Shown here in pieces: positions 7,186 to 63,219 of a stretch of 64,000 bases of DNA. A program made the translations under genes and the position numbers. Source of the stretch: an uncultured Spirochaetota bacterium (lineage in GTDB: Bacteria; Spirochaetota; Spirochaetia; SZUA-6; Fen-1364); assembly GCA_963745235.1 (NCBI GenBank), contig CAVUXE010000003.1:32001-96000 (forward strand), read 5' to 3'. The number at the start of each line of letters is the position of its first letter. Position 1 is the first letter of the stretch. Under the pieces are notes generated by a model. The model was not told the origin of the DNA. It was given only the letters and a program-made list of their open reading frames with translations, and ran no database searches.

Positions 7186-7647
7186 ATGGCGTTTTCACTG
7201 TCCTCGGCGGGCTTCACGCCCGCAGGCGGAATACCCAGGACATTCACCGCTGACGGCAGGGATATTTCCCCCGCGCTGAGCTGGGAGGACCCGCCGCCGG
7301 GGACCCAGGCTTTTGCTCTCGTCTGCGATGACCCGGACGCCCCCGCGGGAACGTGGGTCCACTGGGTGATCTGGAACATCCCGGCCTCGGCAAAGGGGCT
7401 CGGTGAAGCAGTCCAGCACATCAAGACCCTGCCGGACGGCAGCGCTCAGGGCAAAAACGACTTCGGGCGGATGGGCTACGGGGGCCCGAGCCCTCCGCCC
7501 GGAAAGGCGCACAGGTACTTCTTCCGATTGCATGCGCTGCGGGAAAAGCTTCCCCTTGCAGCCGGGGCAGGCCGCGGGGAGCTGGAACGAGCCATGCAAG
7601 GGAAGATACTCGCCACCGCCGAGGTCTTCGGCACCTACAAGAGATGA
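7186..7647 (+). CDS. YbhB/YbcL family (PEBP/Raf kinase inhibitor-like) protein
   Basis: DISPALSW, DDPDAP, WVHWVIWNIP, GYGGPSPP...HRYFF motifs. Confidence 0.93.
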   Translation: MAFSLSSAGFTPAGGIPRTFTADGRDISPALSWEDPPPGTQAFALVCDDPDAPAGTWVHWVIWNIPASAKGLGEAVQHIKTLPDGSAQGKNDFGRMGYGGPSPPPGKAHRYFFRLHALREKLPLAAGAGRGELERAMQGKILATAEVFGTYKR

Positions 7648-8300
7648 GGACGCTGCTCGATCGTTCTCCCGCGGAGATCGTCCAGGTCATCATCATCATC
7701 GTGATGAGCCTGACGGTCCACGAGTTCGCGCATTCCCTGGTGACCATCACGCTGGGAGACGACACACCCCGGCGCCAGGGCCGGCTGACGTTGAACCCGC
7801 TGGCTCATATTGACCTGGTCGGCTTCATCATGCTGGTCATTGCCGGGTTCGGATGGGCAAAGCCTGTCCAGATCAACCCTGCCAACCTGAAAAAGCCGCG
7901 GCGGGACGAGATCCTGATCGCCCTCGCCGGTCCGGTTTCGAATCTCCTGTTCGCGATGGTGGCCGTTGTCGTCATGGGGGCGGTCTTTTCCACCCATGCG
8001 CTGGTTTCTCCACGCTCGCTGCAGGACTTCGGCAACTTCATGCTGATGCTTGCGGCCATCAACGTGAGCCTCGCCATCTTCAACATGATCCCCATCCCGC
8101 CCCTGGACGGGTCGCACCTGGTGACGCCTTTCCTCGGCAGGATCAACACTGCCGTGGCGGCAACGTACTTCCGCTATGGATCTCTCCTCCTGCTGGGCAT
8201 CATCCTCATTCAAAGCTTCACGAGAGTGGACATACTGCACATCGGCCGCCTCACCTATTCCATCGTGGCCTGGATGCTCCGCCTGGTCGGAATTGCCTGA
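7644..8300 (+). CDS. Site-2 protease family (M50) membrane metalloprotease
   Basis: HEFAH zinc motif, GRLTLNPLAHID, GWAKPV, AGPVSN, FNMIPIPPLDG. ATGA overlap with the upstream gene. Confidence 0.93.
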   Translation: MRTLLDRSPAEIVQVIIIIVMSLTVHEFAHSLVTITLGDDTPRRQGRLTLNPLAHIDLVGFIMLVIAGFGWAKPVQINPANLKKPRRDEILIALAGPVSNLLFAMVAVVVMGAVFSTHALVSPRSLQDFGNFMLMLAAINVSLAIFNMIPIPPLDGSHLVTPFLGRINTAVAATYFRYGSLLLLGIILIQSFTRVDILHIGRLTYSIVAWMLRLVGIA

Positions 8301-8322
8301 GGCGGCACCGGCCCATCTTACG

Positions 8323-8381
8323 TGCTTAAAATTATGCAATAACTCTTGACAGCCGCCGCACATTGTGCTTAAAATTAAGCA
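8323..8381 (+). promoter_or_regulatory. Sigma70-type promoter of the ankyrin-SBP operon flanked by two palindromic operators
   Basis: TGCTTAAAATTATGCA (8323-8338), -35 TTGACA (8346-8351), TGCTTAAAATTAAGCA (8366-8381) overlapping -10 TAAAAT (8370-8375). Confidence 0.75.
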
Positions 8382-8405
8382 TGTTGACGGAAAGGAGGGC
8401 GGATC

Positions 8406-9089
8406 ATGCGACGCATGGCTTTTCTCACCTTTGGCGTGGCGTCTTTGGTTCTTCTGGCCGGGTGCTCAAAGCCGGATACGAGGTCGACGTTTGACATCGC
8501 GCGGGACGGAACACCGCAGGCTGTCAAGACCGCAATCGACAGGGCAAAAGGCACGGACGGCAATACGCGGGAATACACCCAGGGCAAGACCCTGCTGATG
8601 TGGGCTGCCCAGTTCAACAGCAACCCGGAGGTGACCGCGGTGATCCTGAAATCCGGCGCAGATCTGGAGGCGCGGGACTACGACTCATCCGCGTACGGCT
8701 GGACGGCGCTGATGTGGGCGGCAGATTCTTCGAAGAACCCCGAGGTGATCACGACCCTTGTCAAAGCGGGCGCTGATGTCAAGGCAAAGGACAAGGAAGG
8801 CTTTACTCCGCTCCTGATCGCCGCGGAGAACAACGAGAACGCCGCGGTTGTCGCCAGGGTCGCAAGCGTCGGTTCAGACCTGGAGGCGAAGGACAACAAC
8901 GGATATACGGCCCTGATACAGGCCGCAAGCAAGAATCACAACCCTGACGTCGTTGTCGCGCTGCTCAGTGCGGGAGCCAACGCAAAGGTGAAAAACGCCA
9001 AGGGATACACGGCCCTGGACTACGCGAAGGTCAACCAGTATCTGAAAAACACTGACGCATTCAAAAAACTCGAGGAGGCATCCCGGTAG
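8406..9089 (+). CDS. Ankyrin-repeat lipoprotein
   Basis: Lipobox LLAGC; repeated GxTxLxxAA units (GKTLLMWAA, GWTALMWAA, GFTPLLIAA, GYTALIQAA, GYTALDYA); AAGGAGG RBS. Confidence 0.92.
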   Translation: MRRMAFLTFGVASLVLLAGCSKPDTRSTFDIARDGTPQAVKTAIDRAKGTDGNTREYTQGKTLLMWAAQFNSNPEVTAVILKSGADLEARDYDSSAYGWTALMWAADSSKNPEVITTLVKAGADVKAKDKEGFTPLLIAAENNENAAVVARVASVGSDLEAKDNNGYTALIQAASKNHNPDVVVALLSAGANAKVKNAKGYTALDYAKVNQYLKNTDAFKKLEEASR

Positions 9090-9128
9090 ACGGGCCTGGT
9101 CCGCAGGCGACCAGAAGGGAGATCGAGC

Positions 9129-10271
9129 ATGAAATTCCTGCAAGCATCCCTCGCATTTGTCATGGCTGTCAGTGCCGTCGTCATGGGCTGCCAGCAGGCG
9201 CCGAAAGAGGTGAAGATTGCCATTGTCGCGCCTCTCTCAGGCGGCCTCTCGGGGTGGGGGGACCTGCTCCGCAACGGTGTCATGTTGGCAGTGGATGAAT
9301 GGAACGCGCAGGGCGGTGTCCTGGGGAAGAAGATTTCTGTTGTCAGCGCTGACAGCCAGGGTGACCCCGCGGTGGTCGTCAGCGCGGCCAACACGGTGAT
9401 TGCCTCGGAGAAAGTTCACTATATGGTCGGGGATGTCTTCTCCAGCCTTTCAATTCCCCTTTCGAACGCGGCAAACGGCGCAAAGGCCATCGTGATCACG
9501 CCGACATCCACAAACAGTGCGGTCACGGTCGACGCGAATGGCTCAACCAAGGCGTACGTCTTTCGCGCCTGCTTCAGCGATCAGTTCCAGGGCCGTGCGG
9601 GTGCCTCTTTCGCGTTCGGAAATCTGAAAGCCCGAAAGGCCTGCGTGATGTTCGATCCCGCGGATGTCTACGTCCGCGGCCTGGCGGAGGCATTTGCGGA
9701 GGCCTTCACCAGGCGCGGCGGAACCGTCGTGGGAAAGGAGAGCTATTCGAACACTGACACCGACTTCTCAAAGACTCTGGCCGCAATCAAGACCGCGGCT
9801 CCCAATGTCATCTACCTCCCGGCGGCCTCCATCCCACTGGTGAACCTCGTCACGGAAAAGGCAAAGGAGGCGGGGATCGGGGCTGCTTTCCTGGGAGGCG
9901 ATTTCTGGGATTCCCCTCAACTCGACCTTGATGCGGCGGAGGGAAGCTACTTTACGAATCACTACTGGCCGGCTGACCAGAGGCCGGAAGTGCGGGCCTT
10001 CGAAAAGGCATACGATCAGAAATATTCGGCCCCCGGTGCGCCGGACATCGTTGCCGGTTTATCCTACGATGCCGCGAACCTGCTGCTGCAGGCAATCCAG
10101 AAAGCAGGCAGGGACGACGTTGCCAGCGTGAGAGCCGCCCTGGAAGGCATCAGCTTCAAGGGGGTCAGCGGCACAATCACTTTCGACGCTCAGCACAACG
10201 CGGTGAAGAGCGCGACGATTGTCCACGTCACCGGCGGAAAGACGGTCCTTGACTCGTATGTTTCACCTTGA
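9129..10271 (+). CDS. LivJ/LivK-type ABC substrate-binding lipoprotein (paralog 1)
   Basis: VKIAIVAPLSG, NAQGGVLGKKI, YVFRACFSDQFQG, YDAANLLLQAI, FKGVSGTITFD; signal ending VVMGC. Confidence 0.9.
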   Translation: MKFLQASLAFVMAVSAVVMGCQQAPKEVKIAIVAPLSGGLSGWGDLLRNGVMLAVDEWNAQGGVLGKKISVVSADSQGDPAVVVSAANTVIASEKVHYMVGDVFSSLSIPLSNAANGAKAIVITPTSTNSAVTVDANGSTKAYVFRACFSDQFQGRAGASFAFGNLKARKACVMFDPADVYVRGLAEAFAEAFTRRGGTVVGKESYSNTDTDFSKTLAAIKTAAPNVIYLPAASIPLVNLVTEKAKEAGIGAAFLGGDFWDSPQLDLDAAEGSYFTNHYWPADQRPEVRAFEKAYDQKYSAPGAPDIVAGLSYDAANLLLQAIQKAGRDDVASVRAALEGISFKGVSGTITFDAQHNAVKSATIVHVTGGKTVLDSYVSP

Positions 10272-10277
10272 CTCCGA

Positions 10278-11381
10278 TCAGGGCGAAATATACGAGTCGA
10301 AGGCTACTTTTCCTCCCGTGACGTGCTCAACAACAACACCTTTCAGGGGGGTGTGGCTAGCATTCATGGCGATTGTGCCGGTCACCCCCACAAAGGAGAT
10401 CTTTTCCAGCGCGGCACGCACGGCGTCGGTGTTGTCGACCCCGGCGTCGCGGATTGCCGTCAGGAGCAGGTTCGCTGTGTCATAAGAAAGTGCGGCGGCG
10501 AAGCTCGGCGCGTCACTGTACTTTGCGCGATAAGCCTTCACGAAGGCCTGTGCTTCCGGCCGCGGGTCATCCGGCCTGTAATGGGTCGTGAAGTAGCTGC
10601 CATCCGCCGCCTTTGGGTCCAGTGAGGCGTCGTCCCAGCCGTCCCCGCCCATGAAGGTGGCGGTGATCCCTTTCTCTCTGGCCTGCCGCGTGACAAGGTT
10701 CACGATCTGGAGGGAGAGTGCGGAAAGATAGACCAGGTCGGGCCGGGCGCTCCTGATCCGGGCAAGGGTATCGGTGAAATCAGTATCCGTGACGGAATAG
10801 CGCGCCGTTCCCAGCACGGCGCCGCCGAGTCTCGTGAAGCTTGCGGAAAAGATATCCGCAAGGTCGCTGATGTAGACATTGGTGGGATCCACCATGATGA
10901 ATGCCTTCCGTGCCTTCAAGTTCCTGACCGCAAAAGAAGCAGCCAACCTTCCCTGAGTCGCATCGTCAAAGCAGGCTCGAAAGACATAGGGCTTGGGAGC
11001 TCCATGCGTGTCCACAGTCACCGCGGCAACCGTGGAAGTCGGCGTGATCTGAATGACTTTCGCCGCGTTGGCAACCTCGGATACCGCGATGGACAGGGGT
11101 GAAAAGATGTCCCCGATGATGTAGCTGGCATGATCCTTCATTATGACATCCTTCGCTGCCTCGACAGCGGAATCCACGTCGTCAACGCTGGTGCCCTTCA
11201 TGACCATCGTGATCTGTCTCCCCAGCACTCCTCCTCTGGCATTCCACTCATCGATTGCGAGCTGGGCCCCTTCTTGCGCGCCTCCCAGGGAGGCCAGCAC
11301 GGCGATCTTCAAAGGCGCCCTCTGGCAGCCCATTATCAGGGCGAAAGTAAGAGGGACCAGGATCAAGGCTTGACGCTTCAT
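10278..11381 (-). CDS. LivJ/LivK-type ABC substrate-binding lipoprotein (paralog 2)
   Basis: NARGGVLGRQI, YVFRACFDDATQG, YDTANLLLTAI, FVGVTGTI; signal ending LIMGC; clearly homologous to 9129-10271. Confidence 0.9.
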   Translation of the reverse strand: MKRQALILVPLTFALIMGCQRAPLKIAVLASLGGAQEGAQLAIDEWNARGGVLGRQITMVMKGTSVDDVDSAVEAAKDVIMKDHASYIIGDIFSPLSIAVSEVANAAKVIQITPTSTVAAVTVDTHGAPKPYVFRACFDDATQGRLAASFAVRNLKARKAFIMVDPTNVYISDLADIFSASFTRLGGAVLGTARYSVTDTDFTDTLARIRSARPDLVYLSALSLQIVNLVTRQAREKGITATFMGGDGWDDASLDPKAADGSYFTTHYRPDDPRPEAQAFVKAYRAKYSDAPSFAAALSYDTANLLLTAIRDAGVDNTDAVRAALEKISFVGVTGTIAMNASHTPLKGVVVEHVTGGKVAFDSYISP

Positions 11382-11429
11382 GGGAACCTCCGCTCGCCCT
11401 GCTGATGCCCCCGACCGACAGAAGTGCTG

Positions 11430-12911
11430 CTAACTTTTTACCCGGTCGTTTCTGCCCCAGGCGTCCAGCACTCGCCAACCTCCCGCCTCTTTCTCCATTG
11501 TGAATGTGAAGTCGTCAAGATAGTCCCCTGTTTCCAGGAGGAGGCGCACAACGGCCGTGTCTCCGGAGACGGTTATCGCCGGGTCGTAGAAGGTCTGGAA
11601 CTTGAACATGCCGAAGTCCTGCTCTATGACGCGTTGGCAATACGGTGATGCAACCGGAAACTTAGTATACCAGCATGTCCGCGGCATGTAGAGTCCGCCC
11701 TGTACAAACACTGAAAGCATCCCTTGCAGGCTGTGAGAGTTGAACCCATTCTCGAATTGGATCAAGGTATCGAGGATTCGTGCCTCATCCGCGTTCCTGA
11801 CCCTGTATTCCGTCAGGTAGAGCGAGCCATACCTCTTCCCCGGGTCCTGCCCTGTTGCGCCCAGCAGCGCCGCGGCAAGAAGCAGGAGCGCGGCAAGGCC
11901 GGACAAGGCGAGGCACTTTTTCACGGATTTTCGTTCTCCGACGATTGTTCGGATCCTGTCTTTGAGGATCTTTTTCCTTCCTCCCGAGAAGCTGAGCCCC
12001 GCGAACAGCGCCGGTTCCCGGCACAGCTGCGCCGCATCCAGGATGCAGGCCGCGTACGCTTGCGGACGAACTCCGCTTTCGATCACCGCTTCATCGCATG
12101 CTTTTTCCTGCTCCAGATAGAGCCGCGCGTAAGCGGCCCAGACCGGCGGCACGAACCACAGGAGAGAGCAGATCCAGTACGCGATGGCAAGCGTGCATGA
12201 GTCTCCACGCCTGACGTGACGAAGCTCGTGGAGCAGGACGGATTGCCTGCCAGCCGGGGACCATCCCCTGATGCCGGACGGCAGGAAGATGACCGGGCGG
12301 ATTATTCCGCGAGTCATCGGAGTGACGCAGAGCTCGCTCTCCACCACGCTGACCTTCCGGCGGATGCCGATGCGCCGGGAAAGACCCCGGACCATGCGCT
12401 CGTATCCGCGCGTCGTGTCACGGGTTTTTCGTGAAAGACCCAGGAGCTGGAGCCTGCCCCGGATGATTCGTAACCATCCCGCCGCGGCGCCCGCGATCCA
12501 GGCGAGCATGGCGACTGACGGCCAGAGGCTGAGCCACACCTGACCCGTCGATATCTGGCGCCATTCCCGGGCCGCCAGGGGAGGCATGCCTCCCGACAAT
12601 CCGAAGGTCCCCGACGATGGAAGCAGCGCGGAGGAAAGCGCGGCAAGAGCGCCGTGGGTGCCGGGCGCACTGTGTGGGAGAGGCACGTGGAAAACCGGTC
12701 CCGTGAGCGTCAGCGCGAAAATGACGAGGCTGCCTGCGATGGCGGACAGCCAGAGGATGTGCCTCAGCTTCGCGGACGCTTGCTTCAAGATCCACAGGGC
12801 GCCGAATGATACGGCAAGCAGGATTGACACCCTGAAGCAGGCCAACAGGAGGGCCGGAATGAACGGGAGCGCCGTCCGGGCGGCCGCCAGGAGAATGGAG
12901 GGCTCTGTCAT
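11430..12911 (-). CDS. BlaR1/MecR1-like M56 metallopeptidase with a C-terminal NTF2/SnoaL-like extracytoplasmic domain
   Basis: N-terminal TMs, LRHILW, PMTRGIIRPVIFLP, HELRH, EKACDEAV, LKDRI, a further TM, then about 135 aa ending ITVSGDTAVV...FTMEKEAGGWRV (NTF2-like pattern, inferred). Confidence 0.88.
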   Translation of the reverse strand: MTEPSILLAAARTALPFIPALLLACFRVSILLAVSFGALWILKQASAKLRHILWLSAIAGSLVIFALTLTGPVFHVPLPHSAPGTHGALAALSSALLPSSGTFGLSGGMPPLAAREWRQISTGQVWLSLWPSVAMLAWIAGAAAGWLRIIRGRLQLLGLSRKTRDTTRGYERMVRGLSRRIGIRRKVSVVESELCVTPMTRGIIRPVIFLPSGIRGWSPAGRQSVLLHELRHVRRGDSCTLAIAYWICSLLWFVPPVWAAYARLYLEQEKACDEAVIESGVRPQAYAACILDAAQLCREPALFAGLSFSGGRKKILKDRIRTIVGERKSVKKCLALSGLAALLLLAAALLGATGQDPGKRYGSLYLTEYRVRNADEARILDTLIQFENGFNSHSLQGMLSVFVQGGLYMPRTCWYTKFPVASPYCQRVIEQDFGMFKFQTFYDPAITVSGDTAVVRLLLETGDYLDDFTFTMEKEAGGWRVLDAWGRNDRVKS

Positions 12912-13291
12912 GACGAGTCACCTTTCTTCGACTGCTCGATGACCTGGATGAGCTCGCGCACGTCCTCATCGCTCAGGTCCCCGGCATGCAGCGCCACCAT
13001 TGCGGCCACGGCCCGGGGAAGCGAGTCTCCGAAGTAGGTGCTGAGAAGGCTCTTCACCGCGCCCCGGACAGCCTTCGTGCGCGGGGCGGTCGGACTATAG
13101 ATGTACTTCTTGCCGCGCTTGACGTGCTTGAGGTGCCCTTTGCGCTCGAGCACATTCACGATGACGCGCACCGCCGAGTAGCTTGCCGGTTCGGGCATTG
13201 CGGCCCGGATCTCCTCCACTGACGCGCTGGAGCCGCGGTAGATGATTTCCATGACCTGCCGCTCCCGCCTGCTCAGAGCCGAATGAAGCAA
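12908..13291 (-). CDS. BlaI/MecI/CopY family transcriptional repressor
   Basis: LSRRERQVMEIIY...SYSAVRVIVNVLERKGHL...YIYSP...LLSTYFGDS. TTG start at 13291 with GGAGGG RBS; ATGA overlap with the M56 gene. Confidence 0.92.
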   Translation of the reverse strand: MLHSALSRRERQVMEIIYRGSSASVEEIRAAMPEPASYSAVRVIVNVLERKGHLKHVKRGKKYIYSPTAPRTKAVRGAVKSLLSTYFGDSLPRAVAAMVALHAGDLSDEDVRELIQVIEQSKKGDSS

Positions 13292-13305
13292 TGACCCTCC
13301 TCTCG

Positions 13306-13341
13306 TGCTTAATTTTGAGCATAAAATCGAGGGGGTGTCAA
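13306..13341 (-). promoter_or_regulatory. Promoter and autoregulatory operator of the blaI-like operon
   Basis: Minus strand reads TTGACA (13341-13336), 14 bp, then TGCTCAAAATTAAGCA (13321-13306). Same geometry as 8346-8381. Confidence 0.75.
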
Positions 13342-13434
13342 GACGGCGGGTGTCACGACGGCGCGGCAATTGACGCGTCTCCCGCGGCCGAGATAAAGTT
13401 TCCTGTTTCCCTCGATCACGTTCGATCACTTTCG

Positions 13435-16400
13435 ATGAGACGCCTGGGAATAGATATCGGGTCCCTCACCCTCTCCATGGTCCTCCTCGAGGAGGGGCGG
13501 ATCGTGGCACGGCACTCCTGCGCGCACGAGGGGAGGCCGGGCCCCCTCGTGAAGTCACTGGTCGACCGCGCTCCTTTCTTTCCCTGGGAATGCGCGGGAG
13601 TGACGGGAAGCCTCGCGGGCGCGGGCAAGGGAATCATCGACAACACCCTGGCGACCATCGAGGGAGCTCGCAGGCTCCTTCCCACCTGCGGCAACCTCAT
13701 CGCGATGGGAGGCCAGAGCTTCTCTCTCATCCTTCTTGATGGCGACGGCCGCTACATCGAGCACGTGTCCAACCCGCCGTGTGCGTCAGGCACCGGTTCA
13801 TTCCTGGAGCAGCAAGCCGAGCGGTTGGGGCTCGGCATCCAGGACTTTGCGGAGCGCGCTGCCGCCTTCTCGGGGGAGATTCCGAGGATAGCGACACGCT
13901 GCGCGGTCTTTGCAAAGACGGACATCGTTCACGCAATGCAGGAAGGCTACTGCCTGGACGCCATCTGCGCCGGACTGTGCGAGGGAATTGCCCGCAGCAT
14001 GCTGGACATGCTCCTCAAGGGAAGACGGTTGTCGCCGCCTGTCGGCCTGGTGGGCGGAGTTGCCCTCAATGAGAAGATCGTACAGACCATCGGCCGGATC
14101 CTCGGGATGACAGTGGCGGTCCCTGAGGACTGCCAGTACGCCGGGGCGCTCGGCGCCGCTCTCCTGGGATCGGATGCGACCCTCGGAGACCTGCATCCGG
14201 CGCGCGGGGGCCGCGCGGTCCGACAGCCCCTTCCCAGCGTGCTTGCCGACTACCCTTCCCTTGACGGTTTCGACGTCTCCCTGCGGGATGACGTGGAAGT
14301 ATTCAGACCACGGGAGCGCCCCGACGGAGACGGCTTCTTCCTCGGCATCGACATAGGCTCTACGAGCACGAAGGCGGTGCTCGTAGGCGCCGACGGGAAG
14401 ATCGGAGACGGGTTCTACACTCGCACGAGCGGAGATCCCGTGGGCGCCGTGCAGCGGTTGCTCACGGCCGTGGAAGGCGTGCGCGGCGGCGACGCACCAC
14501 GCCTTCTCGGAGTAGCCACAACGGGGTCCGGCCGGTCCATCATCCGCCACGTGTTCCAGGCTGACCGCGAGATGAACGAGATCACGGCCCACGCAAAGGC
14601 CGCGGTTTTCCTCCAGCCGGACGTGGACACCATCATCGAGATAGGAGGGCAGGACTCGAAGTTCACGCGCATCAGGGACGGCGAGGTGTACTTCTCCACG
14701 ATGAACTACGTCTGCGCGGCGGGCACGGGGAGCTTCATCGAGGAGCAGGCAAAGAGGCTGGGCGCAAGCCTTGCGGATTTCTCTGACATGGCCCTTTCCG
14801 AGCCCGCGCCTTTCACGAGCGACCGGTGCACTGTCTACATGGAGCGGGACCTCGCGGCACTGGTCGGGGAAGGATGGCCGCGGGAGACCCTGGCCGCGGC
14901 CGTCCTGCACTCTGTGCGGGACAATTACCTCTCCAAGGTCGTAGGCAAGAGCGCCCTGGGAGAGACCATCGTTTTTCAGGGGGCCACCGCGCGCAACAAG
15001 GCGCTGGTGGCCGCCTTCGAGCAGCACCTGGGCAAGCCGCTGCACGTGTCTCCGTGGTGCCACCTGACGGGCGCGGTCGGCGCCGCTCTTCTCTGCCGCG
15101 AGGAGGGACTGGCAGCTTCCCGCTTCCTCTGGGAGACGGGACCGATTGCACTCGAATCAGAAGAATGCCGGCTGTGCGCGAACCACTGCCGCCTTACGGT
15201 CATGGACCGCGGCGGCCTTCGCAGCGGCTGGGGAATGAAGTGCGGGCGCGAATACGCGGACAGAAAGCCTCTGCGGCCGGCGGGCCGGACCTCCTCAGTC
15301 TCCTCTATCATAGAGAGGTTCCAGGAAGCCATGCAGCCCCTCTACCAGCAACCAGAGGCGCTCTCCCAATCCGCCCAGCGCAGGAAGTCGATCTCAATCG
15401 GTGTGCCCCGCAGCCTGTACAACGTTTCCTACGAGCCGCTGTGGCACAGCTTCCTTTCCCGCCTTGGGTTCTCCGTGGCCGGCTCGGACCAGCGCACGGG
15501 CGCCCGGGAAGCCGGAACAGAGCTCGTGAACTCTGATTTCTGCGCTCCCATGGTCCTCTCCCATGGTCATGTCAGACGCCTGGTAGACGCGGGGGCAGAC
15601 TTTGTCTTCCTGCCGGGCAGTGGAGAACAGCGCAGAGGGACCCGAGCCGATCCGCTCCACGTTCCGCAGAAGGGACTCGGACAGCGCGTACTGCTACTAC
15701 TCCCAGTACCTGCCGTCGGTTGTCGGGAAGCTGCCGGGCATTCCCCGTCTCAGAGCGCCTCATCTCGCCGCTGCTGCCGCTTCGTGAAAGAAGCCCTGAG
15801 GAGACAAGCGGACTCCTCCATGACGCTCTTGCGGCGAAGGTCCCCGGCTTGACCCGTGAGGAGACGCAGCAGGCATTCACGGAGGCAAACGCCCTTTTCA
15901 CGGCGGCGCGGACACGGCTCGCGGGGAGTTTCCAGCGTGCAGGAAATGACGAGAGTGGGCTGCGCATCCTCCTGCTGGGCAGGCCCTACGTTGTTTTCGA
16001 TGAGAGCCTGAGCCTCTCCCTGCCGCAGACTTTCGAAGAGCTGGGGGCCGCGGTGTTCTGGCAGGAGGAGCTTGACCTGGAGGGCTTCGCGCTGACGTAC
16101 GGGGCCCAGTACCTGGAGCGCATGCACTGGCATTACGGCAAGCTCATCGTGAGAGCCGCTGAGTTCGCGGCTCGCACGGAGAACCTGTTCCCCGTCTTTC
16201 TGACCTGCTTCCGATGCAGCCCGGATTCCTTCCTGATGAGCTACGTGAAGGACATCCTGACCCATTTCGGAAAGCCATTCCTGTTCCTCCAGCTCGACTC
16301 CCACGCTTCGGACGTCGGCTACCTGACCCGGATCGAGGCCGCCCTGCATTCGTTCCGCAACTACCGCAAGGGGGAAAAAGCCGCGCGAAAGGCGCCATTG

Positions 16401-17651
16401 CCCCCTGCCGTCGTCCACGCCCGGAATGACAGCCTCTCTGCAGGTGACACAATCCTCATCCCGGCCATCGACACGCTGATCAGCCGGTTCTGGGGTGATG
16501 TCTTCTCGCGCATGGGCCACCCCGTCGTCCTCCTGGAGGCGGGGGCCACCGCGCTGAACACCGGTTATCGTTTCGCGAGCGGCGGTGAGTGCATGCCCCT
16601 GGTCTCCATCGTGGGAGCGGCCATCGAGAGGATCCGGGATGGAGCCCTCGACCCTTCCAGGACATTCTTTTTCATGCCTACCTCGCCTTTCTCCTGCAAC
16701 ATGCCGCAGTTCCCGGTGTTTTCCGACATGGCATTTCGCGCGGCCGGCATCCGGGGCTTGAAGATCGGCCAGCTGAACTTCATGGCCCTCGGGGACACGC
16801 TTCCACAGACACTCGCCGGGAAGGTCCTGGAGACCTACATCGTCGCGTGCCTTCTGTACAAGCTGACATCCAGGATCAGGCCGTACGAGAAAAGGCGGGG
16901 GGACACGGACCACGCCCTTTGCCATGCGGAAGCCAGAATCCGCGCGGCCATCATGTCCGGCGGAGACTTGCGCTCTTCGCTTGCCGGATGTGTCGAGCTT
17001 TTCCGCGGAGTCGAGCGGGACGAGTCAGCAGGCCGCAAGCCGCGCATCGCGCTGCTCGGGGACCTGTACGTGAAGTACAACGCCGTGTTGAACGAGGGCA
17101 TCCAGTCCCTCGTTGAAGCCCTCGGCGGAGAGATGGTCATCTCATCAATGACGGAGTACCCGGCCCACCTGCTGGACATCGGCGCGCGCCGCTACGGTGA
17201 GGACCCCCGTTCGGCACGGATCCTCAAGACCGTGGAACAGCGCTATGAAAAGCTCGCTGAGGACCTGATTGGAGACCAGGCGGAGCCCGACTTCGCGGAG
17301 TGCGTGAGGCTGATGAAGGAAAACGGCTTCTCCCACTACATCGCCGGTGAGACGTCGATCAACGTCGGAAGGGCGCTGTGGTATTGCGCTCACCACGCCG
17401 TGGAGGCAATTGTCCATGTCAATCCCATGTTCTGCTGCCCCGGTGTCGTCACGGCCTCCCTGTTCCGCAAGATCCAGGCGGACTTTGGAGTTCCCCTCAT
17501 CGACATCTTTTTTGACGGGACGGGAAGCACGTCGCGAGTGCTCATCCCGCACTTGCACTACCTGCGGCCGGCAAGGACAGGCGCGGCCGTGATATACTCG
17601 AGCTCACAAGGTAATGTCCATGAAAAAGACCATTCGTCTGCTGATCGCTGA
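13435..17651 (+). CDS. Large acyl-CoA dehydratase activase-related fusion (2x BcrAD/BadFG ASKHA ATPase, DUF2229 and HgdD-like C-terminus); frameshifts near 15615 and 15740
   Basis: LGIDIGS...CASGTGSFLEQQA...RCAVF; second GIDIGSTSTK...IEIGGQDSK...CAAGTGSFIEEQA...RCTVY; CRLCANHC; FCAPMVLSHGH; CFRCSPDSF; GGECMP; NPMFCC. The bridging frame reads VENSAE...AYCYYSQYLP. Confidence 0.85.
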
Positions 17652-35466: not shown

Positions 35467-38419
35467 TTACATCTTTTCCGCGATTTTCCCCTGCACCTGG
35501 TCGAAGTACAGGGTGATCATGTTCTTCGGCGTCCGCGTTTCCCACCGTCGGCCGTGGCTTTCGATCACCGCGCCGGGGAAAAGCGTTCCGCGCACGACGA
35601 TCTCCGAACGGACGTGAAGGTCAAACGTGTCATGAAGGGTGATCAGGCGCTTCTTGCGAAGCTCGATTGCCCTCAGGGCCTGGGCCTTTTCCGCCCGCGC
35701 CTGCGAAAGCGCCGTTGCATCCAGTGGTCTGCCGGCAAGCGCCTCCCGCTGGATCCTCTTCATCTCGGCATCCAGCTCCACCGCCCGCCTTGCGATGGCG
35801 GCAACTTCGCGCTCCTCCCGCTCGATCTGGTCCTTGAGCAGGTAGTCCTGGCCAAAGAGGACCAGCGTGGGGATCCCTGTGGCCGAGCCGAGGTTCTGCA
35901 CGGCAACGCCCTGGCGAGCCCGCACTTCACCTCCCACCAGGTTTCCCTTCTCCGAGTCCAGGAGCAGCTTGCCGTTGCATTTCACCTGGCAGCGCAGGCA
36001 CGCCCCCTTCAGGCGCACGTTCTCCGTTGCAATGAGAATGGCCTGCTCGGCGAACGGTGAGGTGATGTCCTTCTTTGCCCTCAGGATTGCCTTCCCCTCC
36101 CCCTTGATCCCCTGCCCGATGAGGATGGAGCCTTCGGAGGACAACAGCGCGGCGTCCACAGTCTCATCCACCTCGATGTCACCGGCTGCCAGGATGCGGA
36201 AGCCCGGTTGAACCGTGCCGTTCACGCGGACGATGCCGGGGAAGTTCACGTTGCCGCTCGTCATGTCCACGTCTCCGGCCACCGTGTGAACCTGCTGGAC
36301 CGTGATGACCGTCCCGTCACGAACCAGCTCGCCGTCAGCCTCCGCGTAGAAGAAGAGGCTCCCGTCCGGCTGGCGCGCCGCGGACACACCGCGCCCTGCC
36401 TGCAGGCCCGAGAGGGCTCCCGCCGGTGGCGGGACGGATTTGCCCGGTCACGTCCCACGACTCCAGGCCTTCCGGAGGAGGCGGCATCACCGTGGCCACG
36501 TGCGCGCCTTTGCCGACGTGGGTGATCCGGTCCTGCGCGCGAAAATCCGCGCGGCCGTCGTCCAGAATCGTCAACGCCTTTCCCGTGGCAAGGCGGATGT
36601 GGAAGGTCACCCGGTTCTCCTCACCCGCGGGCGGGAGCTTCCCCTCTGCGATGAGGCAGTTCTTGAAGAACTTCCCTCGAGCCACGAGGTCCAGTGCCTT
36701 GAGGAGCTTTGTTTCGTCGACCCCCTTGATGATGCCCGCGTCCTGGATCCGGGCCCGCACCTCCTGCACGTCAAGGGAAGCACCCGTCCCCCGCGCGGGA
36801 GTGAACGTGATGAAGCCTTTCATCCGGTCGTCGGAGATGGTGACAACCAGGTCCGCATCCCGGTGGCGTCGCACGCGCAGCAGGATGGTCATGCCATCGC
36901 TGCCTTTTTCCAGGATGCCTTCCTCCAGCGCAATCACCGTCTCGCGCCGCTGCTGAAGTCCCTCGAAAAGGCGCACCTCAGGGGCGGCGCCCTTCAGACC
37001 GGGGATGGTGGCGCCGAACACGTCCACGCCGGAAGCGCCGACCTGTCCCTGCACGATCCGCAGCACGGGCATTTCCGCGGTCACGAGGCCGATGGATTCC
37101 ACCCGCTCCAGCGGGAATTGCGTGAGGGAAGGGACTTCGGCAAGCGCCGCGGTCCTCGTCGCGCTGAATGCTCGAATCCTGTCCGACTCCTCCACCGGGA
37201 GGAACTTCACCAGCCACTCGACGCTTCCGTCCTTGCCGCGCTCGGGAGCCTGGCCGGCAGCGAGTTGGTAGTCCACCAGCTCGTTCTCCGTGCCCTTGAA
37301 GAACTCCTGGAGATCCTTCCTGATCGTCTCTATCGTGTACCTGCGCACCTTGCTGAGGCGGATGGCATCGCTGGCAATGGCGAGTGTCAGGGGCTTCCCT
37401 CCCCCGCGTCCCTTGCGGAGGAAGAGAGTCGCGGCGAGGTTGTCCGGGGAAACCGTGACCACTGCCGCTCCATCGGATGAGGGGCTGAGGGATTTTCCGG
37501 AGAGCGGAGTCCCCGACGTCACCGCCTCCTTCAGGATGGAGGCGATTTCCCCGGCGCTGATCAGCGCCGCGGGGGCGAACCCGATCTTCACGGCCTCGGC
37601 GATGACTTCATCAGCCGTGGGGAGCGGTAGAGCAGGGTCCCCCGGGTCGAAGGAGAGCAGGCAGGTTGCGCCGTCCGCTGAGGCGGAGACCCGCACGGCG
37701 TGATCCCGGAAGGAGACGACGTCCGCCCAGTTTGCCCCGCGCCGCAGGAAGCCATCCCGGACAGACTTGACCTCACTCCCGGTCCTCGCAAGGCCGTCCA
37801 GGAACAGGAACGCCGCCATTTCTGCGCGCTTCGCCGGGACCAGCCTGCCGAAAACGCTCCTGCCCTCCTTCCCGGGCTTCCCCGGCCTGACCTTCGCAAC
37901 GAGCGCGCCTTTGTGCACGAAGCCCGTTGCGGTGACGGCAGGATCTATGGCAACGTCTTGCCGCACCATCTTCTTCTCCACCACCACCTCGATCTCCTCC
38001 CGGGGCGGGAGAAACGGCAGTGATGGCTTGCGCATCACCTTCTTTTCTTTTTTGATTCTCTCTTCGCGAAGGCGAAAACCCCTGGGCGGGGGGGCCTTTT
38101 CCAGCGCCGTTCGCGCGACCCCCGCCAGCCGCGGAGGAATGGGGCAGGGCTCGAACTCCGCCTGCTCAGGCTCCGGGGGGCGCGGCATGATTCCCGCCGC
38201 GGCAACAAAGGTCACCGGTTCACTCTTCTTGCGGGCAACGGATCGGAGTGCTTTCTCGATGGCCTCGGTGTCTATCCCCTCCCGAACCCTCTTCTCCTCG
38301 AGGATGGCAACAAGACTGTCGGTGGACAGCTCCGTCCCGGTTTCGCTGGGCACGATGGTGACGCGCGCCTCGATGCCCTGTTCGTCGAACTCGAGCTTCA
38401 GGTCCCCCTTGACGTTCAT
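35467..38419 (-). CDS. fapA: FapA (DUF342) flagellar assembly protein A family, long spirochaete-like form; frameshift near 36445
   Basis: Repeated ...VSPDNLAATL / ISDDRMKGFI units, G.DVFG, VAGDVDMTSGNVNFPG, GNLVGGEV, GTLFPG. Removing one base at 36443-36447 joins the two ORFs. Confidence 0.82.
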
Positions 38420-60594: not shown

Positions 60595-62148
60595 ATGAGA
60601 AGACTCATCACGCTGCTAGCGGTTTTTGCCCTGCTGGGGGCGGCTGTCGTCACATGGGCGCAGGCCAACGACACGCTGGTGTACGGGACCACGGACAAGG
60701 TCACCGACATGGACCCGGCAAGCGCTTACGATTTCCATACGTGGGAAATCTTCCAGAACGTCAGCTCGGGTCTCCTTGCATACACCCCTGGCACCACCAA
60801 GATCGTGCCGGGGCTGGCCACGGGCTACACGGTCAGCGAAGGAGGTGACGAGTACACCTTCAGCTTGCGAAAGGGAGTGAAGTTCTCCAACGGCAACCCT
60901 TTCAACGCAGAGGCGGTGAAGTGGAGCATCGACAGGGTAGCCAAGCTCAATGGGGACCCGGCCGCGCTGGTGACCCAGTACGTCAAGTCCGTGGAGGTCG
61001 TGGATGACGCCACGGTGAAGTTCATCCTCAAGCAGCCCGTCGGGTACTTCCCCGCGCTCGTCGCCACCCCCACCTACTTCCCCATGGACCCCAGCGTCTA
61101 CCCTGAGGACAAGATCGTGAAGGACGTGGGTGAGCTGAACGGCGGGGAGATTGCCGCCCTCGGGCCGTACAAGCTGACTTCCTTCAAGAGGGATGAAGAG
61201 GCGGTCTTCGAGAACAACCCGAACTATTGGGGCAAACAGCCGCCCATCAAGAAGATCATCATCCGCTACTTCGCTGACGCAACCACCATGAGGCTGGCCC
61301 TCGAGAAGGGGGAGATCGACCTGGCGTTCAAGTCCATGAACCCCTCCGATATCGCTGACCTGCTGAAAAATACAAAGTACAACTCCTGGAAGATCCCGGG
61401 GCCGCAGATCCGCTACCTGTGCTTCGAGACCTCGGAGAGCGTGTTCAAGGAGAAGAAGGCCCGCCAGGCGGTGGCCGCGCTGATCAACAGGCCGCAGATC
61501 AACAGAAGGTCTACCTCGGAGAGAATGCGCCCCTGTACTCCATGATCCCCATGGGCATGAGCTATCATACCGACTACTTCAAGTCCACGTGGGGAGACGG
61601 GAACGTGGCAGCCGCGGATAAGCTGCTGAAGAGCCTTGGCTACACGAAGGCGAAGCCCTTCGAGTTCGACCTGTGGTACACCCCGAGCCATTACGGCGAC
61701 CCCGAGGTGAACATGGCAGAGGTCCTGAAGGCCCAGATGGAGAAGAGCGCGCTCGTGAAGGTGAACATCAAGTCGGCGGAGTGGGCGACCTACAAGCAGC
61801 AGTGGGACCAGAAGCAGATGCCCGCGTTCCTCCTCGGCTGGTATCCCGACTACATCGATCCGGACGACTACACCTCTCCCTTCGCGCAGACCGAAGGCTC
61901 AAAGGGCATGGGGATTTTCTTCACCAACGCGGACTGGGACAAGCTCTTCCTCAAGGAGCAGTCAGCAAGCGATGACGCCGTGCGCAGACGCCACCTTCGC
62001 GAAGATCCAGAAGATGTGGACGGACGAGGTCATGACCGTTCCCATCTTCCAGGGCAACCTGTACGTCTTCACGAAGAAGAACCTGACCGGCGTCAGGATC
62101 GGACCGACTCTGATCTTCAACTACGACCAGCTGAAGTTCGTGAAATAG
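60595..62148 (+). CDS. Peptide/nickel ABC substrate-binding protein, family 5 (frameshifts near 61503 and 61987)
   Basis: DMDPA, PGLAT, YTFSLRKGVKFSNG.PFNAEAVKWS, GPYKL, GWYPDYIDPD; the third frame ends QLKFVK* at 62148. Confidence 0.9.
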
Positions 62149-62162
62149 AGCAGGCAACCGTC

Positions 62163-62188
62163 GTCGGGTCCCCGCCGGGGGACCCGAC
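62163..62188 (+). terminator. Strong intercistronic stem-loop after the SBP gene (terminator or mRNA stabiliser)
   Basis: GTCGGGTCCCC-GCCG-GGGGACCCGAC followed by ACCTTTT. Confidence 0.7.
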
Positions 62189-62202
62189 ACCTTTTCCTTC
62201 CC

Positions 62203-63219
62203 ATGAGACACCTCCTCAGCTACGTCATCACCAGGCTCGTCCTGGCCGTCCCCATGGTCTTCATCCTGCTGACCCTCGTGTTCGTCGTTCTGCGGGTCAT
62301 GCCGGGAGACCCGGTGGGCGCCATGCTGGGAGGTCACGCCCCGCAGAAGGTGATCGATCAGAAGAAAGAGGAGCTGGGGCTCAACAAGCCAATCACCGTG
62401 CAGTACGTGGAATACCTTGGCCAACTCCTCCGCCTGGACCTCGGTGAGTCGATGATCTTCAAGCAGAAAGTCAGCCAGCCCATCGTGGAGAAGCTCCCCG
62501 CCACCATCGAGCTGACCCTCGCCGGGCTTCTGGTGAGCCTTGGCATCGGCGTGCCGCTGGGGGCATACGCGGCGCAGCGGAGGCGGACAGGGCGCGACTA
62601 TGCGGCCCGGCTGTACGCGAATATCGCCTACTGCATACCGGTGTTCTGGATGGGGCTCATGTTCCAGCTGATCTTCGGGGTGTGGCTGGGGTGGTTCCCG
62701 ATTGCCGGGAGAACCGGAGCTCGCGTGGACGTCTCCTTGTTCAGCAGGACCGGCTTTTACCTCTTCGACACGCTGCGCGCTGGCAACATCGGCGCCTTCG
62801 TGGACGTCCTGTGGCACCTTGTCCTTCCCGCCGTGACTCTCGGGGTGGTGCTGTCCGGCATTTTCGTCCGCCTCACCCGGGCGAACATGCTGGACGTCCT
62901 GAAGAGCGACTATATCCTGGCAGCCCGGGCGCGGGGGATCCCCGAGCGAAGGGTGGTGTACAGCCATGGCCTGCGCAACGCGCTCATCCCGGTGGTCACA
63001 ATGCTGGGGCTCCAGTTCAGCCTCCTCCTGGCGGGGGCAATCCTCACGGAGAGCACCTTCTCATGGCCCGGCATGGGCCGCCTGCTCCTGGAACGGATCT
63101 ACCTGCGGGACTACCCGGTGATCCAGGGGGTGATCATCGTGTACACGCTTTTCGTGAGCGTCGTATCCCTCCTTGTGGACCTCCTGTACGCGGCCATTGA
63201 TCCGCGGGTGAAATACTGA
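62203..63219 (+). CDS. Peptide ABC transporter permease (DppB/OppB-type)
   Basis: MPGDP, GLNKP, DLGES, PATIEL, DYILAARARG, LRNALIP, FSWPGMG, DPRV. Confidence 0.93.
   Translation: MRHLLSYVITRLVLAVPMVFILLTLVFVVLRVMPGDPVGAMLGGHAPQKVIDQKKEELGLNKPITVQYVEYLGQLLRLDLGESMIFKQKVSQPIVEKLPATIELTLAGLLVSLGIGVPLGAYAAQRRRTGRDYAARLYANIAYCIPVFWMGLMFQLIFGVWLGWFPIAGRTGARVDVSLFSRTGFYLFDTLRAGNIGAFVDVLWHLVLPAVTLGVVLSGIFVRLTRANMLDVLKSDYILAARARGIPERRVVYSHGLRNALIPVVTMLGLQFSLLLAGAILTESTFSWPGMGRLLLERIYLRDYPVIQGVIIVYTLFVSVVSLLVDLLYAAIDPRVKY

Follow-up and report, generated by a model that had tools for sequence, protein, structure and literature searches.

A 64,000-nucleotide stretch of an uncultured Spirochaetota bacterium (contig CAVUXE010000003.1, positions 32,001 to 96,000; the window from here on) carries, at positions 8323 to 13341, genes for a BlaI-family repressor, an M56-family membrane protease and three exported proteins that look like lipoproteins. 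We propose that this locus is a non-canonical BlaI/BlaR1-type regulated-proteolysis switch, and we put the probability of that reading at about 0.7. On the comparative evidence below, the module appears to be real, autoregulated and non-canonical. The class of system is already known, because BlaI/M56 pairs that do not control β-lactam resistance (PMC13492132) and BlaI operators that do not follow the TACA pattern (PMC8457756) have been published (here and below, published systems are described from parts of the cited papers). The new elements are the operator, its fixed register across two phyla, the pattern of one versus two operators, a predicted NTF2-like sensor domain and the candidate exported outputs. 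A first-pass annotation of this DNA knew of no description of such an arrangement. That is too broad for the class; for spirochaetes it stands in so far as the top-ranked results of our literature search had nothing relevant on a spirochaete BlaI/M56 pair or on an ankyrin-linked BlaI, which is weak evidence of absence.

The gene order, as first annotated and as Pfam and NCBIfam agree, is ankyrin lipoprotein > SBP1 >< SBP2 < M56 < BlaI, where SBP1 and SBP2 are solute-binding proteins (SBPs). The pairing of a BlaI repressor with an M56 protease is borne out by Penicillinase_R and Peptidase_M56 matches. For the repressor, Penicillinase_R (PF03965) scores 94.6 bits against a cut-off of 22.6, over residues 7-121 of 128, and the profile of its clade aligns full length with the MecI and BlaI structures (MecI 1okr residues 7-122, E-value 4e-10). 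The CopY_TcrY model TIGR02698 reaches 44.4 bits against a cut-off of 121.95, and the C-terminal Cys-x-Cys metal site is absent from the window BlaI, whose C-terminal half has no Cys at all. A search of plasmids with BlaI gave 1 distant match, at 29% identity. The M56 protein has the motifs H228-E-x-x-H232 and E269-x-x-x-D273, invariant across 23 aligned homologues (the alignment draws on 22 of the 120 homologues listed), and its closest relatives among the matches listed are P0001 (99%) and P0002 (88%). All three exported proteins have Cys-containing lipobox-like N-termini (LLAGC, VVMGC and LIMGC), in line with their description as lipoproteins, and the lipobox Cys is nearly invariant among SBP relatives. 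At the blaI-M56 junction, stop and start overlap by 4 nt. Gaps of 39 nt between ankyrin and SBP1 and of 48 nt between M56 and SBP2 have a Shine-Dalgarno before each SBP, and neither gap was found to hold a promoter-like or terminator-like site.

The evidence for regulation starts with a 16-bp palindrome that occurs at three places in the window: twice at the promoter of the ankyrin and SBP1 genes (the distal operator O1 and the proximal operator O2, both predicted), and once at the promoter of blaI, M56 and SBP2 (Table 1). The sites have the joint pattern TGCT[TC]AAAATTA[AT]GCA. A scan of the whole window with TGCTYAAAATTAWGCA, allowing at most 2 mismatches, finds no place beyond these three; it yields 4 matches against 0.01 expected, the 8366 site being found on both strands, and dinucleotide-preserving shuffles never reach 4 matches (0/100). 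The copies have the sequences and positions first assigned to them, and the claimed register holds as well: at both the 8366 and the 13321 sites, the gap between a perfect TTGACA and the palindrome is exactly 14 nt. A promoter consensus scan rates TTGACA-18-TAAAAT (ankyrin) at 11/12 and TTGACA-18-CAAAAT (blaI) at 10/12, which are the two best promoter-like matches within 8200-13500, each with its -10 inside the palindrome. At the ankyrin promoter, O1 and O2 flank the -35 and are 43 bp apart, or about four helical turns. The two promoters point towards each other from opposite ends of the module, and a repeat finder pairs them as an inverted repeat of 38 nt with 76% complementarity. The canonical BlaI/MecI operator core is TACANNTGTA (PMC1935004), and it occurs at neither window promoter in the sequence read. 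Rfam over 7500-14000 gave no match at E <=0.1.

The same promoter design is found in related loci. Scanning species-representative genomes with an alignment of the M56 protein matched 297 stretches, 24 of which encode a relative. Loci L001-L011 are Spirochaetota metagenome-assembled genomes (MAGs) with M56 proteins 28-55% identical to that of the window, L012 and L013 are from Acidobacteriota, and the remaining loci hold distant M56 genes of other phyla; contig ends shorten L003, L004, L008 and L010. BlaI is directly upstream of M56 in 16 of the 24 loci, and L001-L013 all have the blaI-then-M56 order. We compared the regions upstream of blaI, aligned 12 promoters, and checked by script 18 promoters from the window and L001-L013, namely 14 blaI promoters and 4 second promoters. 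In 17/18, TTGAC[ACG] is followed after 14 nt (15 nt in two) by a 16-bp TG..CA palindrome. The design is present in 13/14 blaI promoters and in two phyla (Spirochaetota and Acidobacteriota MAGs), the clade operator consensus being TGCTnA-N4-TnAGCA, and the TTGACA hexamer is invariant in the 12-promoter alignment. When the relaxed consensus is run over 366 kb with at most 1 mismatch, 26 of its 37 matches fall in these promoters, and the remaining 11 are in the range that shuffles give (4-13).

In 9 of the 18 promoters there is a further site 7-8 nt before the -35, and the two sites are then 43-45 bp apart from centre to centre. In the window, L001, L007 and L008, a blaI promoter with one operator is accompanied by a nearby two-operator promoter for exported proteins. 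In L002, L003, L005, L006 and L009, the two operators are at blaI itself, and the flanks examined hold no further site. Because the spacer of the window ankyrin promoter resembles the spacers of the L005 and L006 blaI promoters, promoter duplication is suggested. The two-site geometry upstream of blaI in L012, an Acidobacteriota MAG, departs from the 43-45 bp spirochaete spacing: the perfect palindromes TGCTAAATATTTAGCA and TGCTAAAATTTTAGCA abut, 14 nt after TTGACA.

The operator and the repressor also change together. Across the window and L001-L013, the fifth base of the half-site varies with the residue after the invariant R43 of BlaI: V goes with TGCTTA (window, L001-L006, L008), A with TGCTAA (L007, L010-L012), S with TGCTGA (L009), and G with TGCCAA (L013). 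This residue falls in the segment that aligns with MecI 'IRTLITRLYKKG', which we take to be the recognition helix of the MecI and BlaI structures. Such residue-base covariation is what direct readout by BlaI would predict. Since the palindrome covers the -10 in 13/14 blaI promoters, the window BlaI probably binds and represses its own promoter, and the initial call of a non-canonical BlaI operator gains from both the promoter count and the covariation.

Table 1. Features of the module, of its surroundings in the window, and of related loci.
Feature	Locus	Position	Strand	Details
Distal operator O1 (predicted), ankyrin-SBP1 promoter	window	8323-8338	+	TGCTTAAAATTATGCA; 7 nt between O1 end and -35
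-35 hexamer, ankyrin-SBP1 promoter	window	8346-8351	+	TTGACA
Proximal operator O2 (predicted), ankyrin-SBP1 promoter	window	8366-8381	+	TGCTTAAAATTAAGCA; -10 TAAAAT inside, 8370-8375
Ankyrin-repeat lipoprotein, 227 aa	window	8406-9089	+	Pfam Ank_2, 114.9 bits; lipobox LLAGC
SBP1, LivJ-type solute-binding lipoprotein	window	9129-10271	+	Peripla_BP_6, 218 bits
SBP2, LivJ-type solute-binding lipoprotein, SBP1 paralogue	window	10278-11381	-	Peripla_BP_6, 188 bits
M56 (BlaR1-type) membrane zinc protease, 493 aa	window	11430-12911	-	PF05569, 93.4 bits, cut-off 31
BlaI-family winged-helix repressor, 128 aa	window	12908-13294	-	Penicillinase_R, 94.6 bits; TTG start, chosen from alignment with homologues
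Single operator (predicted), blaI-M56-SBP2 promoter	window	13306-13321	-	TGCTCAAAATTAAGCA; -10 CAAAAT inside
-35 hexamer, blaI promoter	window	13341-13336	-	TTGACA
Small Peptidase_M50 gene (site-2 protease family)	window	7644-8300		ends 22 nt before distal operator
SBP1/SBP2 3' ends	window	10215-10334		6 nt between convergent stops; 53-nt inverted repeat
CoA-enzyme-activase-like gene	window	13435-17651		divergent from blaI; at least 2 reading frames
Activase ORF with DUF2229 profile positions 2-78	window	13435-15852
Activase ORF with DUF2229 profile positions 116-216	window	15720-17651
FapA_N and FapA in separate overlapping ORFs	window	35467-38419
Split SBP_bac_5 gene	window	60595-62447		profile positions 1-234 and 233-366 in separate overlapping ORFs
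Permease	window	62203-63219		goes with SBP_bac_5 gene
Free WTD gene	L001	790-1263	-
Free WTD gene	L001	3640-4095	+
Free WTD gene	L002	9492-9932
Free WTD gene	L007	10020-10490
Palindrome	L011	7441-7456	-	TGCTAAATAATTAGCA; 14 nt after TTGATT
Cys-rich membrane protein, 173 residues	L011	6891-7412	-	downstream of the palindrome; no Pfam match
Two abutting palindromes	L012	1366-1397		upstream of blaI

What the switch might sense can be approached through the end of the M56 protein, in which Pfam has no match to PF00905 or another penicillin-binding domain. About 140 residues, at roughly 355-493, follow the last hydrophobic segment, and taken alone they have no above-threshold match. Compared with 1.84 billion representative proteins, this piece finds 22 at E <=1e-3; we examined 11 of these, and 10 are stand-alone proteins, 144-174 residues long, in which the same domain follows an N-terminal hydrophobic leader. 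Identity to the free-standing relatives goes up to 49%. A 13-member profile of the domain matches NTF2-like structures (3ejv, E-value 5.7e-5; the ketosteroid-isomerase-like 3d9r, E-value 7e-4), and DUF4440 and SnoaL_2 match in 9/13 and 8/13 of the members. Because of these matches we call the C-terminal region a predicted NTF2-like periplasmic domain that replaces the penicillin-binding domain; the signal peptides of its free-standing relatives lead us to place it outside the cytoplasm. Ligands of NTF2-like domains are typically small and hydrophobic, and such domains also occur as regulatory modules fused to extracytoplasmic function (ECF) sigma factors.

We picture the switch as follows. BlaI dimers on the palindromes would block the -10 and RNA polymerase, and at the output promoter they would also flank the -35. 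Because its promoter has one operator, the blaI-M56(-SBP2) unit would be autoregulated, probably with enough leakage to maintain some sensor in the membrane, while two operators at the ankyrin-SBP1 promoter should give tighter, possibly cooperative repression. A periplasmic signal, probably a small molecule, would be received by the NTF2-like C-terminal domain of M56, and the cytoplasmic zinc protease so activated would lead to the inactivation of BlaI and the derepression of both units. That M56 inactivates the repressor in response to a signal is what its family membership leads us to infer. The proteins made would be the ankyrin lipoprotein and a pair of LivJ-like binding lipoproteins that have no transporter genes in the vicinity. 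SBP2 may be counted as an output solely through the 48-nt gap behind M56, in which no promoter or terminator was found.

Several points weigh against this proposal. Every step of the mechanism, from binding and cleavage to the signal and co-transcription, is one that we infer from sequence. In a tblastn comparison of nine window proteins with the 24 related loci, SBP1 and SBP2 are found in 0/24 and the ankyrin gene in 1/24 (L001), and because of these counts the outputs are lineage-specific and could be passengers. The claim that the three lipoproteins are what the operator controls keeps on its side an ankyrin-SBP1 promoter with two sites, and has these counts on the other. Around homologous pairs, likewise, the motif is conserved (13/14 blaI promoters) and the lipoprotein neighbours are mostly absent. 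The blaI promoter of L004 has an upstream site only, with no recognisable proximal operator. The motif scan was confined to the part of the genome in the 64-kb window. Unlike in BlaI and MecI, the Asn-Phe pair of the dimerisation domain, at the position that we take to be scissile in the staphylococcal proteins, is not conserved: 'LNF' of MecI/BlaI aligns to A-[M/L]-V ('AAL/M-V') of this clade; cleavage of BlaI is putative, as is its site. The correlation between residue and base comes from few lineages, and it is confounded by relatedness. Finally, because other window genes look frameshifted, single-base assembly errors are possible; against that worry, the 14-nt spacing from -35 to palindrome recurs independently in other loci.

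The related loci also tell us what else stands behind twin-operator promoters. In the window it is ankyrin and SBP1; in L001 it is a 158-residue secreted protein and then an ankyrin lipoprotein 35-38% identical to that of the window; in L008, a secreted DJ-1/PfpI protein; and in L007, a 156-residue secreted protein. A recurrent family, which we call 'WTD' after its conserved motif, consists of secreted or membrane-anchored proteins of ~150 residues with motifs like FYGTW...KWTDxxGNxWY...YxIxYR, and its comparison with PDB and Pfam gave nothing convincing (best E-value 0.03). A WTD copy lies directly 3' of M56 in L001 and L002, which is SBP2's place in the window. The WTD domain is found free under the operator, and it is also the C-terminus of the L007 and L009 M56 proteins; in L007, the free WTD protein and the end of the neighbouring M56 are 29% identical (E-value 5e-15) from the last membrane helix on. 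The free DJ-1 protein of L008, in turn, shares 48% identity with the domain fused at the C-terminus of the L005 M56. More distant M56 proteins end in ankyrin repeats (P0077, P0093), SBP_bac_1 (P0080) or DJ-1/PfpI (P0017). The domains fused to M56 sensors and the operator-controlled exported proteins draw on one domain pool. Strict pairing of sensor and output is found in one locus only, L007, and the 64-kb window has no free-standing NTF2-like, WTD or DJ-1 gene. As a separate observation, in L011 a second palindrome, TGCTAAATAATTAGCA, precedes the gene of a Cys-rich membrane protein, and the M56 protein ends in a Peptidase_M23 domain.

One could go further and suppose, speculatively and against the odds, that within this shared pool (NTF2-like, ~130-residue WTD, DJ-1/PfpI, ankyrin, SBPs), whose fused and free members are sometimes direct paralogues, soluble copies bind, neutralise or titrate what a receptor copy senses. 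If true, this would generalise the logic of BlaR1, whose sensor domain is related to the resistance enzyme: the receptor copy would sense a periplasmic ligand or enzyme, the soluble copies would then be released, and the ankyrin and SBP lipoproteins of the window would be inducible periplasmic binders, inhibitors or detachable receptors. Periplasmic ankyrin proteins reportedly act as inhibitors or immunity proteins.

The two solute-binding lipoproteins deserve a closer look, as the next alternative turns on them. SBP1 and SBP2 are 54% identical, and the closest solved structure is 3td9 (E-value 9e-50). We scanned 55 open reading frames (ORFs) of the window, picked greedily by length so that small genes may be missed, and found among them no LivHMGF-type permease or ATPase gene; the sole permease found goes with an SBP_bac_5 gene (Table 1). 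We therefore regard SBP1 and SBP2 as orphans. In a tree of 32 rows (30 of the 120 homologues listed, and the two window proteins), they belong to different clades, both supported at 100/100 and both distinct from the abundant 383-residue spirochaete SBPs. A recent inverted duplication as the origin of the pair was considered and rejected on this separation and the 54% identity. The SBP1 clade includes P0177 (91%) and P0197 (74%), and the first loop of the SBP2 clade is shorter than that of the common spirochaete SBPs by a shared deletion of 8 residues. Orthologues among the matches listed are 62-94% identical for SBP2, P0141 being the closest (94%), and 67-91% identical for SBP1. Some of these proteins have the same value listed for their longest contig: P0141 and P0177 (4008 nt), P0143 and P0197 (7229 nt), and the SBP2-like P0148 (62%) and the M56 protein P0005 (58%; 9389 nt). 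These coincidences are a hint that closer relatives outside the species representatives also have the SBP pair and the M56-SBP2 linkage. The ankyrin homologues share no longest-contig value with the M56 or SBP homologues.

The alternative is that the lipoproteins are parts of the sensor and not outputs: SBP2, presumably co-transcribed with M56, and perhaps SBP1 and ankyrin, would bind a ligand or partner in the periplasm and dock on M56, as detached versions of the domains fused elsewhere. Being orphans, both SBPs would suit such a role, and ankyrin, SBP_bac_1 and DJ-1/PfpI domains are in fact fused to other M56 proteins; however, the SBP in P0080 is of a different family. The gene right behind M56 in L001 and L002 encodes a small membrane-anchored or secreted protein, and the first-loop deletion sets the SBP2 clade off from common spirochaete SBPs, but the SBPs themselves are in none of the related loci. 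The shared 9389-nt value of P0148 and P0005 hints at recurrent linkage, and such a coincidence is no proof of it. An interaction of the lipoproteins with M56 is purely conjectural, and SBP1 and ankyrin, behind the most tightly repressed promoter, fit an induced output better. We consider this alternative unlikely.

Much harder to sustain is the idea that the palindrome is not a BlaI site at all but a promoter element, or a site for some other regulator, carried along when a promoter was duplicated. The A/T-rich centre of the palindrome does double as the -10, and the inverted repeat formed by the two promoters, together with the L005/L006-like spacer, means that shared ancestry could explain some of the similarity. 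But the conserved bases are the outer TGCT and AGCA, which a -10 does not need, and the distal copy sits ahead of the -35, a place with no need for a -10. The motif also accompanies blaI in two phyla and changes with the DNA-binding segment of BlaI, and autoregulation at palindromes is the rule in the family (PMC1935004, PMC8457756). We regard a non-BlaI origin of the site as very improbable.

A canonical response to β-lactams or cell-wall damage, like that of BlaR1 and MecR1, is least probable of all, close to negligible: both proteins belong to the right families and the best NCBIfam match of M56 is blaR1_generic, but that match has 81 bits against a cut-off of 400, the M56 C-terminus is NTF2-like by prediction with no PF00905 domain, the module has no β-lactamase or penicillin-binding protein (PBP) gene, and penicillin-binding domains are found in only about 6% of M56 proteins (PMC13492132), so that the signal is probably not a β-lactam sensed canonically.

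Returning to the proposed proteolytic switch, we can place it among known systems. With BlaI/BlaR1 and MecI/MecR1 of Staphylococcus aureus and Bacillus licheniformis, the locus shares the order of repressor gene and then M56 gene, the HExxH and ExxxD motifs, a winged helix alignable over its full length, a palindrome that covers the promoter and, here by prediction, serves autoregulation, and operator sites in pairs. Unlike those systems, it has a sensor with a predicted NTF2-like domain and no penicillin-binding domain, no β-lactamase or PBP output, and an operator with the conserved bases at its outer edges (TGCTnA-N4-TnAGCA, as against TACANNTGTA; PMC1935004). CenIR of Clostridioides difficile is also a BlaI-type repressor with an M56 protein that has no transpeptidase domain, and such systems are the majority: in a survey of ~15,000 M56 proteins with 254 architectures, about 94% have no penicillin-binding domain, and 96% are within five genes of a BlaI (PMC13492132). 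The CenR C-terminus is short and largely disordered, whereas that of the window M56 is predicted to be a folded NTF2-like domain. In the parts of that paper at hand, no operator or regulon of the window kind is given for CenIR, and NTF2-like, DJ-1 and ankyrin are outside the nine architectures (at least 100 entries each) of its Fig. 7 legend (PMC13492132).

BlaI_0696 and BlaI_1845 of Clostridium thermocellum also have operators unlike TACA/TGTA (GTCTAT-type inverted repeats 5 nt apart), paired sites for two dimers, and small regulons that include their own operon; thus TACANNTGTA is not universal in the BlaI/MecI/CopY family (PMC8457756). They differ from our system in half-site, phylum and outputs, and their sites were measured by DNA affinity purification sequencing (DAP-seq) and electrophoretic mobility shift assay (EMSA), whereas the window sites are predicted (PMC8457756). 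CopY/CopR share the fold family and a 16-base operator, RNYKACANNTGTMRNY, often in two copies, for which separate roles in blocking the -35 and the polymerase have been proposed (PMC7253601); unlike them, the window BlaI has no C-terminal Cys-x-Cys, and control would come from a partner protease and not from a metal. PvmSR of P. aeruginosa and mycobacterial BlaIR are, like the window pair, BlaI/M56 pairs that do not, or do not only, control β-lactam resistance (the former does not); their M56 proteins have no extracytoplasmic sensor domain, whereas that of the window has one by prediction (bioRxiv 10.64898/2026.08.03.742534, PMC8265638).

The locus alone reveals no new kind of mechanism. Its interest lies in that hardly any signals, operators and regulons are known for the majority of M56 proteins (about 94%) that have no β-lactam sensor, as far as the parts of the survey at hand go (PMC13492132). 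For one clade, the locus and its relatives supply a concrete predicted operator, a promoter layout that is fixed apart from an optional second site upstream, a candidate BlaI specificity residue and a first list of genes that would be controlled, all of them encoding exported proteins. This could allow regulons to be predicted by motif scanning in uncultured spirochaete and acidobacteria genomes.

The genes around the module have features of their own. The M50 protease gene upstream of it is probably unrelated, because the 24 related loci all lack a counterpart; the upstream M50 and PEBP genes were considered as members of the module and rejected, as neither is found in any of those loci, and the two CoA-activase ORFs are likewise in 0/24. 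PADLOC gave generic ankyrin and winged-helix matches and nothing else. The 3' ends of SBP1 and SBP2 (Table 1) have an RNA fold of -62 kcal/mol with z = -8.6, equalled by 0/200 shuffles, and this hairpin could be a bidirectional transcript end or a stabiliser, though it has no U-tract.

A three-frame view of 15600-15900 shows frame switches in the CoA-enzyme-activase-like gene, which is either a frameshifted gene or the product of assembly indels. Together with the split SBP_bac_5 and FapA genes, it suggests single-base indel errors in the assembly. No tRNA gene was found in the 64-kb window, which has a GC content of 62.6% overall and of 58-60% across the module. Signalling genes are also abundant in the window: 7TMR-DISM GGDEF-EAL, an HD-GYP-type response regulator, LuxR-type and sigma-54-type response regulators, MASE11-GAF and STAS.

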